Sequence record: OM858838
Strand: one strand, 5' to 3'
Length of the DNA: 64,000 nucleotides
Origin: Shigella phage B2
Program-made: the position numbers and the translations under genes
Shown: positions 9,926 to 46,701 of the stretch, in pieces
How the letters are laid out: every line of letters starts with the position of its first letter
Position numbering within the stretch: position 1 is the first letter of the stretch
The notes under the pieces: generated by a model
Told to the model about the DNA's origin: nothing
The model's input: only the letters and a program-made list of their open reading frames with translations
Database searches by the model: none

Positions 9926-10653
9926 TGTCAGAACCAATTAAAGACCTAGTCTTAATTGCAGGTGCATCATCATCTGGTAAATCAGCTTCATTGATGAATC
10001 TGGAAGACCATCCGGGAGTGATGTATCTAAACTGTGAATCTGGTAAACGTCTGCCATTTCCAAACAAGTTTGATAAGTATGTAATCACTGACCCACTACA
10101 AGTGTATGAAGCATTTGATGCTGCTGAGACTATGCCTCACATTCATACCATTGTAGTTGATTCAATTACATTCCTGATGGATATGTTTGAATCCCTTTAT
10201 GTTATTGGTTCAGCCAATACCATGAAAGGTTGGGCTGATTACAATCAGTTCTTTAAGAATCTGATGCAGGTTAAGGTAGCCAAATCTACCAAACGAGTAA
10301 TCTTTACTGCTCATACTCTGTCTCAGTTAAATGAGAATGAGATGATTGTAGAAACCAAAGTTCCAGTGAAAGGTGCACTGAAGAACCAAGGTATTGAAGC
10401 TTACTTTACCTGTATTGTTTATGCCAAGAAGATGCAGCTTAAGCATCTGAAGCCTTATGAGAATGACCTATTGGTTATTACTCCAGAGGAAGAAATCCTT
10501 GGCTATAAGCATGTCTTCCAAACTTGTATCACCAAAGATACTGTCCATGAACGTATTCGTTCTCCACGCTTTATGTGGAAGATGAATGAAAGTTTCATCG
10601 ATAACGATGTAACTAAAGTACTTGGTCGTATCAAAGAATTTTACGAAGAATAA
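9926..10653 (+). CDS. P-loop ATPase (RecA-like; replication/recombination)
   Basis: Walker A GASSSGKS, Walker B IHTIVVDS; start set at ATG 9926 after AGGAG RBS (track start 9811 overlaps upstream gene). Confidence 0.45.
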
Positions 10654-42611: not shown

Positions 42612-44237
42612 TTAAACCAGATAACTATCTATTCCATTGGATTGGGTTGGTTCAGGCATGTCCCATATACCATCATCCTGTACACCTCCTGTAGAGCCTT
42701 GTGAGGGCTTCCATACTTTAAGACACCCTAACATACTGATGGTATCAATAAAGTCGTCATGCTTGCTCTTAAAGCCCTCTACAGTAGCTAACTGAAGCTC
42801 ATCCATAGCTTCTAACATAATCTTCTCTTCTTTGAGTTCTTCAGGGAAATACATCTTACCTGCTTTGAACCAAGGAAGAACTGAGTTGAATCTCACCATC
42901 TTATTACTATTAGGTCGAATACCCGGTCTACTGTTATTGCCATCAGAGGCAAAATTGAACCAAATATTACGAGTCATCATCTCATTCTGAAGTAGCGGGA
43001 TGAATCCACCTTGCTGACCTGTAACTTCAATGCCTACAGATTGAGGTTGGTACTCTACAACTAGTCTAAATAGGTCATCAAAGTTCTTATCCATAAGCTG
43101 GCGTCTACAAATACCATCAACCCAGAACCAATCACCATTAGAGTTGATGGCCCATACAGAAATAACTGAATAGTCAGCAGACTGTTTCTCAGAAGTAGCA
43201 AAGTCAGTAGTGATATAGAAATTAAAATGACCTCTATTCAGCAGAAGAGACTTACGCTTATACCATTGGATATCAGAATCCATGACAAGCCTCTCTTCAT
43301 CAGAGGTAATTCGTAGCATCAATTCCTGATTGAATGCAGCAACCTGTCCAGTTGATACAGCAAGGTCGTATTGCCCTTTAACGAAGTCATATGAGAAGCG
43401 GTCTTCCCAAGCTCCTACAAATTCTTCACGAGAACATGGGAATTTCTCACAAATAGGGAATACGTTTACATACCAACCACCTGATTCTACTGCTTCATAA
43501 AGAATATCGTTCTTATTAAAGGGTGTTCCACTGAAAACAATCTTTCTACGTACAGGGTCGAGAGCATAATCGACACCTTTGTACACAGTATCCTTGATTG
43601 CCTGCATAGTTGACTTAGATTTAGCATCATCATCACTAACTAAGTCATCCAATACAGCTAAAACAGGACGTTTACCAAAGATTTTAGTACCACGAAGACC
43701 TGTCTTAGCACCAAACATACGAACACCTAGCTTATGCCCATCAGCATTAGTGAATTCTAGGTATGCATCAGTGAATTTGGCTTCAGGAATGTACTTCTGA
43801 AGGAATTCAGAGTTGTTATAACGGTATTCGATATTCTTTCTAAGTGATTTTACCCCGTTCTCCATTGAGTCAGAGACATAAATCATACCTTCGATTTCAC
43901 CAAATCCATCAATCTCCCCATATAAGGCAATATACAGAACCAGATACTCACCAAATAAGGTAGTTTTAGCCATACCACGAGAACAAAGATTGGCTAATCG
44001 AGTACGTTTACCTGCTAACTCATCAAGCATTTTAAGATGAACAACAGGAGTAAGGTTAGATTCACCTGCTTCACCATTAACCATCTTGATAAAGTTCACA
44101 TAGTTAATTGCGAATACAGAAGGAACATAGTTACCGTCATTGAGAGTGCTGTAATCAACAGTATTCAGCCACTCTACAACTGACTTTTTAACCATTGGGT
44201 CTTCTTTAATCATCGACACGTTCAGATTCTCCATCAA
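42612..44237 (-). CDS. terminase large subunit
   Basis: 541 aa; Walker A-like LCSRGMAKTTL, Walker B VLAVLDDLVSDDD. Confidence 0.7.
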   Translation of the reverse strand: MMENLNVSMIKEDPMVKKSVVEWLNTVDYSTLNDGNYVPSVFAINYVNFIKMVNGEAGESNLTPVVHLKMLDELAGKRTRLANLCSRGMAKTTLFGEYLVLYIALYGEIDGFGEIEGMIYVSDSMENGVKSLRKNIEYRYNNSEFLQKYIPEAKFTDAYLEFTNADGHKLGVRMFGAKTGLRGTKIFGKRPVLAVLDDLVSDDDAKSKSTMQAIKDTVYKGVDYALDPVRRKIVFSGTPFNKNDILYEAVESGGWYVNVFPICEKFPCSREEFVGAWEDRFSYDFVKGQYDLAVSTGQVAAFNQELMLRITSDEERLVMDSDIQWYKRKSLLLNRGHFNFYITTDFATSEKQSADYSVISVWAINSNGDWFWVDGICRRQLMDKNFDDLFRLVVEYQPQSVGIEVTGQQGGFIPLLQNEMMTRNIWFNFASDGNNSRPGIRPNSNKMVRFNSVLPWFKAGKMYFPEELKEEKIMLEAMDELQLATVEGFKSKHDDFIDTISMLGCLKVWKPSQGSTGGVQDDGIWDMPEPTQSNGIDSYLV

Positions 44238-44901
44238 TTACTAACTTGGTATGAGCTACTTCTTTAGCTGAATAGACTCCGCCTTCAATCAGTTGTCGCT
44301 GCTTCGCAGCTAGCTGTGAGGTTAATTCCCTCAGTTCACTAATTACACCACCTTCCTGCAATCCAACATTAAGTTCAATCTTATTGGCTTCAGGACGTTT
44401 GAGATGATTAAGTAATGAGTTAGCTGCTTCACACTTAACCTTCTCACTTTTAGCATTAAGCATTAAATCTGCTTGAACGTTAATAGCTTTCTGAAAGATA
44501 TCAGCATTAAGAACATGAGTTGGAACCAAAGTCTGTTCATAGATAAGGTTAACTAACTTACCTTTGTTGTATGCAGATACATAACAATGAATATCTTTAG
44601 TGGAAGTACCGGAGTTCAAGAAGTTTTGATATCGGTCTGGGAAAGTTTTTATATAAGCTTCAAAGTTGGTATGTCCCATTAGTTTAAAACTGACATACTT
44701 AACTGCGGATAAGTAGTCTTCAATCTTAAACTTACCATCCTTCATTACATGGGTATAAGACATTAAGTTATCTCTCAATACTTCACCCATAATGGGGTCA
44801 GAGAGAATCTTATTAATCTTATCCATTAAATCCTGATTAACACTGCCTTTATGATTTTGAGGCATTACAGCTTTAAACTGTTCTACTGATAACTGAGTCA
44901 T
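44206..44901 (-). CDS. hypothetical protein (terminase small subunit candidate by position)
   Basis: 231-aa ORF immediately upstream of and overlapping TerL. Confidence 0.35.
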   Translation of the reverse strand: MTQLSVEQFKAVMPQNHKGSVNQDLMDKINKILSDPIMGEVLRDNLMSYTHVMKDGKFKIEDYLSAVKYVSFKLMGHTNFEAYIKTFPDRYQNFLNSGTSTKDIHCYVSAYNKGKLVNLIYEQTLVPTHVLNADIFQKAINVQADLMLNAKSEKVKCEAANSLLNHLKRPEANKIELNVGLQEGGVISELRELTSQLAAKQRQLIEGGVYSAKEVAHTKLVIDGESERVDD

Positions 44902-44934
44902 AGTTACTCCGAAGGGGTTTACAAATAGATTATC

Positions 44935-44950
44935 AGTACTATATAGTACT
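44935..44950. promoter_or_regulatory. perfect 16-bp palindrome upstream of late operon
   Basis: agtactatatagtact, ~35 nt upstream of the - strand start at 44901. Confidence 0.3.
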
Positions 44951-45075
44951 TTTCACAGAAAGTAGAAGATTCTTAAGTGAGAGGTGTATTAGAACGTAAC
45001 GGACTCATTATCCAATCTACGTTCAGTTGTTAAGATTGCAGTCTTAATAACATTTGATGATACATCTCTCTCTTA

Positions 45076-45090
45076 AGCACCTTCGGTGCT
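45076..45090 (+). promoter_or_regulatory. TTC-loop hairpin (vRNAP-type promoter candidate) before tRNA cluster
   Basis: agcacc-ttc-ggtgct, no T-run after it. Confidence 0.35.
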
Positions 45091-45106
45091 CTCTTTGGAA
45101 AGTTTT

Positions 45107-45178
45107 GGTTCTATGGTCCAGTGGAAAGGATATTCCCCTGTCACGGGAAAGGCCCGAGTTCAATTCTCGGTAGAACCG
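45107..45178 (+). tRNA. tRNA-Asp (anticodon GTC)
   Basis: Hand-folded cloverleaf: acceptor ggttcta/tagaacc, D gtcc/ggat, anticodon stem ttccc/gggaa loop ctGTCac, T ccgag-ttcaatt-ctcgg, CCA encoded. Confidence 0.8.
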
Positions 45179-45185
45179 CCAATTA

Positions 45186-45260
45186 CAGGATATAGCTCAA
45201 GTTGGTTAGAGCACTCGGCTCATAACCGAGAGTGTCCAGGTTCGAAACCGGGTGGAACCA
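45186..45260 (+). tRNA. tRNA-Met-like element (anticodon CAT), acceptor stem unresolved
   Basis: Good D arm (gctc/gagc) and anticodon arm (ctcgg-ctCATaa-ccgag); the 5' end does not pair with the 3' tggaacc-a-cca in my fold. Confidence 0.35.
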
Positions 45261-45270
45261 CCAAATAATG

Positions 45271-45355
45271 AAGAGAGTCGTATAGCGGCCCAATACGCCA
45301 CCCGAACGTTACGACTAGTACGGAGAACACGCAGGTTCGAATCCTGCCTCTCTTC
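45271..45355 (+). tRNA. tRNA-like element without canonical anticodon arm (possible pseudo-tRNA)
   Basis: Perfect 7-bp acceptor aagagag/ctctctt, D arm gtat/atac, T arm gcagg-ttcgaat-cctgc; the 33-nt middle has no 5-bp/7-nt-loop hairpin. Confidence 0.3.
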
Positions 45356-45361
45356 ACAAAT

Positions 45362-45435
45362 TGTCTCATAGCTCAGTAGGTCAGAGCGTTCCCCTGATAA
45401 GGGAAAGGTCACTAGTTCGATTCCAATTGAGACAA
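45362..45435 (+). tRNA. tRNA-Ile (anticodon GAT)
   Basis: Acceptor tgtctca/tgagaca + a + CCA, D gctc/gagc, anticodon ttccc-ctGATaa-gggaa; T stem has two mismatches. Confidence 0.6.
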
Positions 45436-45579
45436 CCATCCAATAGATTACAGTTCGTATCTCTTAGGGGAATACACTTGTAATTGCGGCCCGATAGGAA
45501 AGGGTAATTTCTCGACGATGGGAGTAGACCATTGACTGTTTGGAATAGACAACTGACGCTGTGAACGAGAACAGGAACA

Positions 45580-45666
45580 AGATGAGTCGTATAATAGGCA
45601 AATACAATATTCATGTTTCGCTATAGGCATGGAGAAGGAACGTGAGTTCGAGTCTCACCTCATCAA
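45580..45666 (+). tRNA. tRNA-like element, paralog of 45271-45355
   Basis: Shares agaNgag-tc-gtat...atac 5' half and a ttcgagt T arm (gtgag/ctcac); 1:72 mismatch and no canonical anticodon arm. Confidence 0.25.
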
Positions 45667-45766
45667 TAGTTCTTATCAGGGATTACTTACTACTATATAT
45701 CATACATTACCTCGCCTGGTGTGTTGGTGTTACCTCGGTAGATAAGTAATCCACTAATAAGAATTT

Positions 45767-45849
45767 GGAAGATTCCGCTCAGTGGTGGGCAATCCGGTTT
45801 GAACCCGGAGGTGCTGGTAACGGTAGGGGTTCGACTCCTCAATCTTCCG
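45767..45849 (+). tRNA. tRNA-Ser (anticodon TGA), type II
   Basis: Acceptor ggaagat/atcttcc + g + CCA, anticodon tccgg-ttTGAac-ccgga, long variable arm. Confidence 0.7.
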
Positions 45850-45858
45850 CCAATATTT

Positions 45859-45931
45859 GATAGGATAGCTAACTCGGTAAAGCGGCAGACTGTTAATCTG
45901 CGACATTAGGGTTCAAATCCCTATCCCATCG
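45859..45931 (+). tRNA. tRNA-Asn (anticodon GTT)
   Basis: Anticodon gcaga-ctGTTaa-tctgc, T taggg-ttcaaat-cccta, acceptor with one A.C mismatch, CCA encoded. Confidence 0.75.
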
Positions 45932-46099
45932 CCAAACTTGCAGGTAACTCTGCAATCCGTGACCAGTCGGTATGTTTATTAGTATGTAAAAGGCTGGGCT
46001 TCCTGCCTCTCATAGCCATACTCTTAAATGAATAACTGGTAGTCCAGCCAAGCGCACGAAGATGGGGACCCTCACCATCGGACAAAACGAGGGTACTAA

Positions 46100-46173
46100 G
46101 CATCCTTAGCTCAGTTGGATAGAGCAGTAGCCTTCTAAGCTATTGGTCACTGGTTCGAATCCAGTAGGGTGTA
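46100..46173 (+). tRNA. tRNA-Arg (anticodon TCT)
   Basis: D gctc/gagc, anticodon gtagc-ctTCTaa-gctat, T actgg-ttcgaat-ccagt, acceptor with two G.U pairs, CCA encoded. Confidence 0.8.
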
Positions 46174-46177
46174 CCAA

Positions 46178-46250
46178 GCTCACTAAGTTCATATGGGTGA
46201 ACGCCTGCCTTGTAAGCAGGATGAACGCGGTTCGATTCCGTGGGTGAGCA
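46178..46250 (+). tRNA. tRNA-Thr (anticodon TGT)
   Basis: Acceptor gctcact/ggtgagc, D gttc/gaac, anticodon cctgc-ctTGTaa-gcagg, T cgcgg-ttcgatt-ccgtg, CCA encoded; unusual A at position 8. Confidence 0.75.
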
Positions 46251-46255
46251 CCAAT

Positions 46256-46338
46256 GGGAGTATGGTGAAATCGGTAGACACAAGGGATTTAAAATCCCTC
46301 GGCTTATAGCTGTACGAGTTCGAGTCTCGTTACTCCCA
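46256..46338 (+). tRNA. tRNA-Leu (anticodon TAA), type II
   Basis: Acceptor gggagta/tactccc + a + CCA, anticodon aggga-ttTAAaa-tccct, long variable arm, T acgag-ttcgagt-ctcgt. Confidence 0.85.
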
Positions 46339-46363
46339 CCAAATTAATACAAGGAAAATCCCA

Positions 46364-46540
46364 ATGCGTTTTATCCAAATGAATTCTGGACCTAATCGTG
46401 CAGAACGCCGTAAAGCGTCTCATAATATTCGCAGAACAGAAGTAAAATCTCGTGTAGCCAAACGTATGGACCGTCCTCACAAGATGGATATCATCGATGC
46501 TGGCTATAACAAAACGATGAATTTCTTCTTCCCAGCGTAA
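46364..46540 (+). CDS. small basic protein (58 aa)
   Basis: RBS AAGGA then ATG; MRFIQMNSGPNRAERRKASHNIRR...; host-like codon usage; below track cutoff. Confidence 0.35.
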   Translation: MRFIQMNSGPNRAERRKASHNIRRTEVKSRVAKRMDRPHKMDIIDAGYNKTMNFFFPA

Positions 46541-46670
46541 AGAACTCGCTGCCAGCGGGTGCCTGAGTACAACTGAGTGTGGGAGCTATCAACTCCACGG
46601 TATACTTTCCTTAAAGTCGGCTCACGAGTACAAGCCTCTCAGCTATGAGTAAATAGCACTAAGCCTCCTT

Positions 46671-46701
46671 GGTCACGCAGGGAGGCTTTTTTATTTCTCT
46701 T
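46671..46701 (+). terminator. rho-independent terminator
   Basis: agcctcc-n12-ggaggct followed by T6. Confidence 0.7.

Follow-up and report, generated by a model that had tools for sequence, protein, structure and literature searches.

A conserved family of tRNA-shaped elements without an anticodon arm and a tRNA-Pro/tRNA-Met deletion chimera in the tRNA cluster of Shigella phage B2

Atypical elements in the tRNA cluster

The 64,000 nucleotides (nt) of the Shigella phage B2 genome analysed here (record OM858838; hereafter the window) carry a cluster of transfer RNA (tRNA) genes in which three elements depart from the usual tRNA form: a Met-like element with a CAT anticodon and two further elements, which we call E1 and E2, that are tRNA-shaped but have no anticodon arm. 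Judged by its sequence the phage is N4-like (Schitoviridae, Humphriesvirinae, genus Ithacavirus), and its tRNA region is 89-94% identical to the nearest records, SP154, S5, UTK0001, UTK0002, As2, FSL SP-058 and FSL SP-076. An initial annotation of the window had counted seven well-folded tRNAs in the cluster (Asp, Ile, Ser, Asn, Arg, Thr and Leu) and ARAGORN with default settings calls precisely these seven, with no call at any of the three odd elements. CCA is encoded in 7/7 of these true tRNAs, six of which are also found by the Rfam tRNA model (RF00005, gathering threshold 29 bits) at gathering with 50-69 bits, tRNA-Ser being missed. The three atypical elements and their parts are as follows, R1 being a covariance model built from five members of the E family.

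45186-45263, + strand: Pro/Met chimeric pseudo-tRNA, identified by comparison with tRNA-Pro and tRNA-Met of UTK0001
45186-45192, + strand: 5' acceptor strand of tRNA-Pro, CAGGATA
45192-45199, + strand: crossover microhomology ATAGCTCA, followed by the tRNA-Met(CAT) body
45253-45259, + strand: 3' acceptor strand of tRNA-Met, TGGAACC, followed by discriminator A
45261-45263, + strand: CCA of the chimera
45271-45354, + strand: E1, anticodon-less tRNA-like element, R1 83.3 bits, no CCA, 3' flank CACAAAT
45271-45277/45348-45354, + strand: E1 acceptor stem
45280-45283/45293-45296, + strand: E1 D stem
45297-45330, + strand: E1 middle
45331-45347, + strand: E1 T arm
45580-45665, + strand: E2, anticodon-less tRNA-like element and the syntenic, universal copy, R1 91 bits, no CCA, 3' flank AATAGT
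45580-45586/45659-45665, + strand: E2 acceptor stem
45589-45592/45602-45605, + strand: E2 D stem
45606-45641, + strand: E2 middle
45642-45658, + strand: E2 T arm

The Met-like element had been described as having no pairing 5' acceptor strand, and this description holds: CAGGATA and TGGAACC pair at 2 of 7 positions (A-U and U-G), while the D, anticodon (CAT) and T arms are intact. The Rfam tRNA model reports it at 45188-45260 with 37.7 bits, which is above threshold, in an alignment that flags the unpaired acceptor positions and requires a 2-nt deletion in the 5' strand. In BLAST comparisons homology to the relatives breaks at 45101 and picks up again at 45192, and 45183-45220 matches the start of tRNA-Pro in the relatives, all of which have an intact tRNA-Met with the acceptor stem GGTTCCA/TGGAACC. 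UTK0001 has the order Asp-Pro-Tyr-Ser(GCT)-Gln-Met-E1-Ile, which is likely to be the parental arrangement, with the same Asp gene standing ahead of an intact tRNA-Pro. A three-way comparison finds the element identical to the UTK0001 tRNA-Pro through ATTACAGGATATAGCTCA and to the UTK0001 tRNA-Met from ATAGCTCA on; this 8-nt stretch is common to both tRNAs at tRNA positions 7-14, and the 526 base pairs (bp) between its two copies in UTK0001 are missing from the phage studied here.

At the level of sequence, alignment with the clusters of related phages therefore shows the Met-like element to be a non-functional hybrid of a tRNA-Pro 5' strand with a tRNA-Met body and 3' strand, arising from one 526-bp deletion. 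Recombination through ATAGCTCA of tRNA-Pro and tRNA-Met in a UTK0001-like ancestor removed the intervening segment, and relative to UTK0001 the phage has lost Pro, Tyr, Ser(GCT), Gln and Met. As the acceptor stem is unable to form, the product should escape both processing and charging. The suggestion that the odd elements might be decayed tRNAs is thus right for this one in so far as it is dead, and wrong as to the route, which was a single deletion and not gradual decay. It matches exactly the recombination chimeras and pseudogenes known from clustered tRNA genes, in which a deletion joins short identical stretches of two neighbours. The element is ordinary, its sole notable point being that the phage appears viable without Pro, Tyr, Ser(GCT), Gln and Met; its value is one of annotation, the label should read pseudogene, and five tRNAs of the relatives appear dispensable here.

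The 3' strand TGGAACC had also been noted as complementary to the 5' strand of the preceding tRNA-Asp. It does pair with GGTTCTA, and the minimum free energy (MFE) fold of 45107-45263 contains this long-range helix at -51.7 kcal/mol, against -50.9 kcal/mol with the Asp acceptor closed (a gap of 0.8). The predicted fold is what would speak for a rescue of the chimera within the precursor through a helix with the 5' strand of tRNA-Asp, either as a functional composite or as a regulatory misfold of tRNA-Asp, but we give this very little credence. The acceptor stems of Asp (GGTTCTA/TAGAACC) and of the intact Met are one base pair apart and the same complementarity is already present in UTK0001 where Met is intact, so that it predates the deletion, was not selected afterwards and is a real but incidental leftover. 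In the order of transcription tRNA-Asp would fold first, with seven Watson-Crick pairs of its own, and a composite would surround a whole tRNA, for which no RNase P substrate of similar shape is known.

The E family: structure, distribution and conservation

E1 and E2 each have an acceptor stem of 7 positions, a 4-bp D stem and a 5-bp T stem closed by a TTCGAAT or TTCGAGT loop, and in E1 an additional G45270-C45355 pair is possible. Their middles are 34 nt (E1) and 36 nt (E2) long and neither holds a 5-bp stem with a 7-nt loop, in agreement with the initial annotation, which had assigned acceptor, D and T arms and no anticodon hairpin to 45271-45355 and 45580-45666. The E2 middle forms a hairpin TCATG...CATGG with a 12-nt loop. 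The caveat that the hand fold might be wrong can be withdrawn, since default ARAGORN and the Rfam tRNA model give no canonical tRNA at either element; with the latter nothing is reported at 45271-45354 or 45580-45665 at E<=10, and ARAGORN under relaxed settings (-ps80) returns E1 and E2 only as 'tRNA-???' with 2-nt 'anticodons'. Single-sequence MFE folding gives a four-arm cloverleaf for E2 of SP154 and for the copies in Klebsiella phage KpCHEMY26 and contig L073, and the TR2 copy keeps the acceptor, D and T arms; the folds of the copies studied here partly deviate, E1 losing the D stem and E2 the T stem.

Other readings of the two elements were rejected. With the intron option (-i) ARAGORN calls E1 'Thr(agt)' with a 12-nt intron, a call found in no other member. 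A coding reading, namely a GTG-start open reading frame (ORF) of 35 amino acids at 45642-45749 (after GGAGAAGG) and an ATG ORF at 45629, lacks conservation in both SP154 and KpCHEMY26. A search of the window for sequences complementary to the linkers and loops of E, with <=2 mismatches, gave chance-level matches only, and the E2 middle has no second copy within the window.

All 9 Ithacavirus records contain E2; its 3' half is the same throughout and its 5' half differs only at position 1, the middle of the other records being different and 6 nt shorter than that of Shigella phage B2. Homologues of E2 stand in the same place (behind Ile or Ser(GCT) and ahead of the tRNAs that follow) in Klebsiella phages KpCHEMY26 and MY01, in Salmonella phage TR2 and in contigs L073 and L091, and the position is kept in every genome holding this part of the cluster. 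E1 is found in four genomes in all; it is identical in SP154 and S5 and carries G10A in UTK0001 (contig L075, 2003-2086), where the first D-stem pair becomes A10.C25 and the R1 score is 76.4 bits as against 83.3 bits for the other E1 copies. It is missing from UTK0002, As2, SP-058 and SP-076, in which Met adjoins Ile, and the E1 segment has CAAAT at either end. Constraint on E1 may be weaker than on E2.

The 11 family copies score 76-93 bits with R1, well apart from phage tRNAs (<=38 bits) and metagenomic class II tRNAs (<=49 bits), and no member was found with R1 in 20 more distant N4-like contigs. Searches with BLAST in distant mode returned E1 in 3 records and E2 in 9, and the KpCHEMY26 region only in MY01 and TR2. 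From pattern scans over collections of viruses, metagenomes and genomes only L073 and L091 were gained, besides copies of known variants. The family thus appears confined to one clade of enterobacterial N4-like phages (Ithacavirus, Pylasvirus and Triduovirus-like).

Pairing in the acceptor, D and T helices is kept in 98.6% of 144 cells (9 distinct sequences), and 11/16 pairs have changed on both sides, a count reached by 0/500 shuffles; slid partners pair in 36-56%. The same three helices, along with the middle hairpin, also emerge from RNAalifold when it is given an independent MAFFT alignment spanning everything from Ile to Ser. The unpaired nucleotides of the elbow are invariant, namely U8, A14, the D-loop GG (G18G19), A21 and TTCGA(A/G)T (T54-T55-C56), as is G53-C61. 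Members of the family therefore have the acceptor, D and T arms and elbow nucleotides of a canonical tRNA, while an anticodon arm of 5 bp with a 7-nt loop, U33 and an anticodon is found in 0/9 distinct members. In its place is a middle of 30-37 nt that opens with a short linker, often ATACC, and closes with a purine-rich linker (GGAGACAAGAC, GGAGAAGGAAC, GGAGAACAC). The hairpin between them is lineage-specific in sequence and length, with hand-read apical loops of 4, 5, 5, 5 and 12 nt and folding z-scores of -2.0 to -3.9 in Pylasvirus and -1.3 to -2.3 in E2 and TR2.

None of the E copies encodes CCA, the 3' flanks in the relatives being AAAAGT, TTAAGT, AGGTAC and AATCTC, and the discriminator is not conserved (C or A, A, T and A across members). 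As to aminoacylation identity, there is no G3.U70, G-1:C73 is possible in E1 only and no consistent set was found across members. The identities that have been assigned to individual copies clash: the KpCHEMY26 record has Leu-CTA, and ARAGORN gives 'gtac', Tyr(ata) (TR2 and L091), Gly(acc) (L073) or '???'. KpCHEMY26 has CTGTA at positions 32-36, which together with the Tyr(ata) calls is suggestive, and only suggestive, of a tRNA-Tyr origin.

We conclude from these comparisons that E1 and E2 belong to a conserved family of tRNA-shaped, tRNA-derived RNAs that is absent from Rfam. They are not decayed tRNAs, because the stems are kept by compensatory substitutions across phage genera. The alignments show selection maintaining the acceptor stem, the T and D arms and the elbow, and no longer acting on the anticodon arm or the encoded CCA; with the anticodon arm missing, the E RNAs cannot decode. 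Of the two options first offered for E1 and E2, decay is contradicted and a tRNA mimic fits, E1 being a partial exception.

The variable part of the element is the apex of the middle hairpin. Between Shigella phage B2 and SP154 identity is 96% in the Ile-to-E2 spacer, 97% in the 5' half of E2, 100% in the 3' half and 54% in the middle, with a 6-nt indel, although the flanks that serve as the rate reference are themselves conserved RNAs and no neutral yardstick. The three Pylasvirus copies differ solely at positions 40-47, which form the apex. This variability may reflect lost constraint combined with template-switch mutation in a quasi-palindrome, or diversifying selection.

Possible roles of the E RNAs

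E2 lies between two conserved segments that are not tRNAs.

45439-45579, + strand: conserved Ile-E2 spacer, 96% identical to SP154, alignable with KpCHEMY26 and TR2, no Rfam match
45667-45766, + strand: hairpin of about 100 nt immediately after E2 and ahead of tRNA-Ser, MFE -36.1 kcal/mol, z -5.3

The spacer contains the invariant AGACAACTGACGCTG (about 45548-45562) and its 3' end adjoins the 5' end of E2; several helices are predicted in it, with pairs that hardly vary, so that covariation speaks neither for nor against the structure. The hairpin has a counterpart at the same place in SP154 with z -9.4 and different arms (GGATTACTTA/TAAGTAATCC against GAGTCTCTA/TAGAGACTC), and is closer to the version in Klebsiella phage KpCHEMY26 than to that of its own genus, which suggests mosaic exchange. 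It could be an RNase III-type processing site. E2 is always preceded by the conserved spacer, and a strong hairpin follows it in Ithacavirus and Pylasvirus. A further segment, the Asn-Arg spacer at 45935-46099, forms a structured RNA whose conservation extends over Ithacavirus, Pylasvirus and TR2 and for which RNAalifold predicts 50 pairs, 12 of them with compensatory changes; by eye there is a possible pseudoknot of the loop ACCCTC (in a GATGG...CCATC hairpin) with a downstream GAGGGT, and there is no Rfam match.

The continuous stack of 12 bp formed by acceptor stem and T arm is what RNase P, RNase Z/BN and the CCA-adding enzyme read. We propose that E1 and E2 would be transcribed with the tRNA cluster from a promoter-like site at 44918-44947, and that the tRNA-maturation machinery of the host would recognise the E RNAs, RNase P and a 3' endonuclease (e.g. 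RNase BN/Z) cutting their ends. Cleavage at E2 would split the conserved 140-nt spacer RNA from the 100-nt hairpin and free a tRNA-like by-product of about 85 nt. Since the structured non-tRNA segments of the cluster are all bracketed by tRNA-shaped elements, a role of the E RNAs as cis-acting processing punctuation is the one we favour, tentatively and by analogy. For the anatomy alone, that is, a deletion chimera beside a conserved, non-decoding, tRNA-shaped family, our confidence is high. Recognition of the E RNAs by tRNA-processing enzymes is less secure than this, and the joint statement of chimera, conserved non-decoding family and recognition and cutting by those enzymes is, in our judgement, somewhat favoured.

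Several points weigh against this proposal. Transcription, RNase P cleavage and stability of the E RNAs are all things we infer. E1 lies between two true tRNAs with spacers of 5-9 nt, where punctuation is needless, and as RNase P needs little beyond an acceptor/T minihelix, the conserved D arm and elbow suggest that the whole L-shape is read, which is a better fit to a role in trans. The covariation counts come from 9 related sequences of one phage clade in a model-fitted alignment, single-sequence folding z-scores are only modest (-1.2 to -2.5), and the middle hairpins of E1 (z 0.19) and L091 are no better than shuffles. Some copies may moreover be drifting: position 1 of the E2 acceptor is an A1.A72 mismatch in Shigella phage B2 where the relatives have U1-A72, and the E1 of UTK0001 carries the A10.C25 mismatch.

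A role in trans is the strongest competitor to cis punctuation. E1 and E2 would then be decoys, stable mimics titrating or blocking a host factor that recognises the upper half or the elbow of tRNAs, such as a tRNA-targeting defence nuclease, an acceptor-end toxin or a modification or processing enzyme; without an anticodon loop they would avoid translation and resist anticodon nucleases. This has some plausibility, although we consider it unlikely. The full L-shape core is kept beyond the RNase P minihelix (covarying D arm, U8, A14, G18G19 and T-loop), a processing signal is superfluous for an E1 flanked by tRNAs, and no part varies more than the apex of the middle hairpin (54% between Shigella phage B2 and SP154, flanks 96-100%). 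The literature on phage tRNAs includes the proposal that they counter tRNA-targeting defences (PMC10264068). Lost constraint and template switching explain the variable apex equally well, however, and its flank reference is not neutral; the family is restricted to a narrow phage clade, and neither the annotation of the first 50 kb of the UTK0001 record (71 kb) nor the surroundings of the cluster yielded a tRNA-related protein. A bolder form of the decoy reading would make the E RNAs a new class of phage counter-defence RNA that sequesters or misdirects a tRNA-targeting immune effector or toxin, with the apex as an arms-race interface and the spacers 45439-45579, 45667-45766 and 45935-46099 as further small RNAs matured likewise, and we rate this as improbable.

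Equally improbable in our view is that E1 and E2 are functionless pseudogenes, relics of a class I or Tyr-like tRNA with a destroyed anticodon arm that persist only through their shortness and their place in an often rearranged cluster. The cluster is indeed prone to rearrangement, as seen in the Pro/Met deletion, in an HNH ORF splitting tRNA-Pro of KpCHEMY26 and in a tRNA content that differs among close relatives; E1 is found in 4 genomes only, with G10A in UTK0001, the E2 studied here has no 1-72 pair and the middle is degenerate. Drift should break stems, yet the two-sided changes and near-complete pairing described above extend over three genera, the unpaired elbow nucleotides are invariant while the middle has diverged past alignment, and the position of E2 is constant in all genomes holding this part of the cluster. 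Least credible of all is that the E RNAs decode by means of an unusual anticodon arm, as suppressor, frameshift or intron-containing tRNAs. Such a reading could draw on the tRNA-Leu-CTA label in the KpCHEMY26 record, on the ARAGORN calls 'Tyr(ata)' for TR2 and L091 and 'Gly(acc)' for L073, and on the resemblance of CTGTA (32-36) in KpCHEMY26 to the anticodon loop of tRNA-Tyr, but the assigned anticodon differs in every member, even between copies 3-4 bases apart, and a 5-bp stem closed by a 7-nt loop occurs in none of them (the loops read by hand measure 4-12 nt). The Rfam tRNA model is silent at E<=10, CCA is absent from the E copies and present in every true tRNA, and the intron call for E1 recurs in no other member.

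Cis punctuation by tRNA-shaped modules has precedents. In mascRNA from the 3' end of MALAT1, in MEN-beta elements and in mitochondrial punctuation, RNase P and RNase Z excise tRNA-shaped modules and so set the ends of neighbouring RNAs. The mascRNA and MEN-beta elements share with the E family the acceptor, T and D features and a degenerate anticodon arm, and the released mascRNA-type RNA is non-decoding. The mascRNA group is eukaryotic, however, and has no sequence relation to the E family, in which processing is a prediction and E1 has no non-tRNA neighbour to free; the Rfam mascRNA model hit only the true tRNA-Asp with 22.7 bits (threshold 42.5) and neither E1 nor E2. Phage T4 encodes RNAC and RNAD (species 1 and 2), which have tRNA-like 3' parts and are not known to form a full cloverleaf lacking the anticodon loop. 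Two publications describe them as small non-tRNA RNAs in the tRNA region, co-expressed with tRNAs and with roles still unknown (PMC3014915; PMC9697503). They are the closest analogue of the E RNAs in context, a likeness drawn from their published description, and belong to another phage family and have other sizes.

YrlA and other bacterial Y RNAs are present in Salmonella. YrlA has a non-decoding tRNA-like domain with a D arm, a T arm, an acceptor-like stem and conserved tertiary nucleotides, some YrlA RNAs are cut by RNase P and carry CCA, and some are encoded by phages (PMC4201824). Their acceptor-like stem is a closed stem-loop and the ends of the RNA form the Ro60-binding helix, whereas the ends of the E RNAs form the acceptor stem and there is no Ro60-binding module. 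YrlA genes adjoin a TROVE/Ro60 gene; no such gene flanks the cluster or appears among the annotations for the first 50 kb of the UTK0001 record (71 kb). Membership in YrlA was rejected (RF02553, 17.3 bits against a threshold of 69, only over the E1 T arm and the 5' end of tRNA-Ile). Transfer-messenger RNA (tmRNA) likewise combines an acceptor stem and a T arm with the lack of an anticodon, and RNase P takes part in its processing. It has no D stem, a G3.U70 for alanyl-tRNA synthetase, a tag reading frame and pseudoknots, as opposed to G3-C70 or A3-U70 and a true D stem in the E RNAs, and membership was again rejected (0 genes with ARAGORN -m; Rfam 11.6 bits against a threshold of 47, over the E2 T arm only).

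The E family clearly shows a phage in which purifying selection maintains the upper half of a tRNA together with the elbow, the decoding part having been dropped. The family lies outside Rfam and is mis-annotated and inconsistently labelled in public records, and a label such as the amber-suppressor-like Leu(CTA) could mislead studies of phage suppressor tRNAs and recoding. If processed as predicted, the E RNAs would offer a small, genetically tractable bacterial system for tRNA-like punctuation or mimicry. Together with the three conserved structured spacers they suggest that several small RNAs come from N4-like tRNA clusters, much as RNAC and RNAD have been known from T4 for decades.

Cluster layout and related elements in other genomes

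The seven true tRNAs, as called by ARAGORN, have the following positions.

45107-45181, + strand: tRNA-Asp(GTC), intact, CCA encoded, Rfam tRNA 64.8 bits
45362-45438, + strand: tRNA-Ile
45767-45852, + strand: tRNA-Ser
45859-45934, + strand: tRNA-Asn
46100-46176, + strand: tRNA-Arg
46178-46253, + strand: tRNA-Thr
46256-46341, + strand: tRNA-Leu

The cluster is bounded by a leftward N4 gp69-like gene (44206-44901) and a small rightward ORF (46364-46540), and the proteins flanking it have no Pfam match and fall only into PHROG families of unknown function. The sole strong sigma-70-like match on the + strand lies upstream of the cluster, at 44918-44947 (10/12; TTTACA, 18-nt spacer, TATAGT). Two weaker + strand matches (9/12) lie inside the cluster, and the overall number of matches is not above that in shuffles. 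A + strand terminator-like site at 46661-46688, past the small downstream ORF, is the only one near the cluster end. With a promoter-like site ahead of it and this single terminator-like site beyond the downstream ORF, the cluster looks like one transcription unit, as far as consensus matching can tell. Just ahead of the first tRNA, 45070-45106 holds a small hairpin, GCACC-TTCG-GGTGC, followed by TCTCTTTGGAAA. A nearly identical counterpart is found in Klebsiella phage Pylas, and in TR2 another stem, GCCCC-TGC-GGGGC, precedes the same TCTTTGGAAA. Lying between the promoter-like site and the cluster, the hairpin may be an attenuator or a processing signal.

The related clusters show further departures from canonical tRNAs. 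In KpCHEMY26 (contig L008, about 1510-1960) tRNA-Pro(TGG) is interrupted just past the anticodon loop by an insert of about 360 nt containing an HNH-type ORF that ends in ...CANCHREVHA, and the 3' half of the tRNA picks up at about 1909; the same tRNA-Pro is unsplit in contig L073 (2545-2621). The element annotated as 'tRNA-Pyl (CTA)' in the record of Klebsiella phage Pylas, and so called by ARAGORN (L007, 2339-2414), stands in the place of tRNA-Arg(TCT) of the relatives and shares its acceptor and T arm. These sequences point to an Arg tRNA whose anticodon stem-loop has changed, and not to a pyrrolysine tRNA. Contig L091, a TR2-like viral contig of 72 kb, has a 96-nt tRNA-shaped element after tRNA-Leu (10059-10154) whose acceptor is GGGGTGT/ACACCCC and which contains a long, AT-rich hairpin in its interior besides a T arm. 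The ARAGORN call is 'tRNA-???' with an anticodon of 2 nt. In these phages the element would seem to represent a second type of aberrant tRNA-like element.

Outside the phages, a conserved tRNA-like element with the acceptor GGCCATG/CGTGGCC and D and T arms was found in several Streptomyces chromosomes (L076, L077, L080, L081, L083, L084, L088 and L089) and in metagenome contigs L065 and L066. A 10-bp hairpin with a 5-nt loop replaces the anticodon arm. The element shows compensatory changes between species, and in L076 it lies near tRNA genes and an integrase fragment. The Streptomyces elements and a tRNA-Tyr in L092 resemble the E family partly through the design of the search pattern, and homology to it is not established. 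Metagenome contigs L050, L053, L055, L056, L060, L063, L068 and L069 contain CAT-anticodon tRNAs whose variable arm is long and class II-like, an uncommon feature in tRNAs for Met or Ile2.

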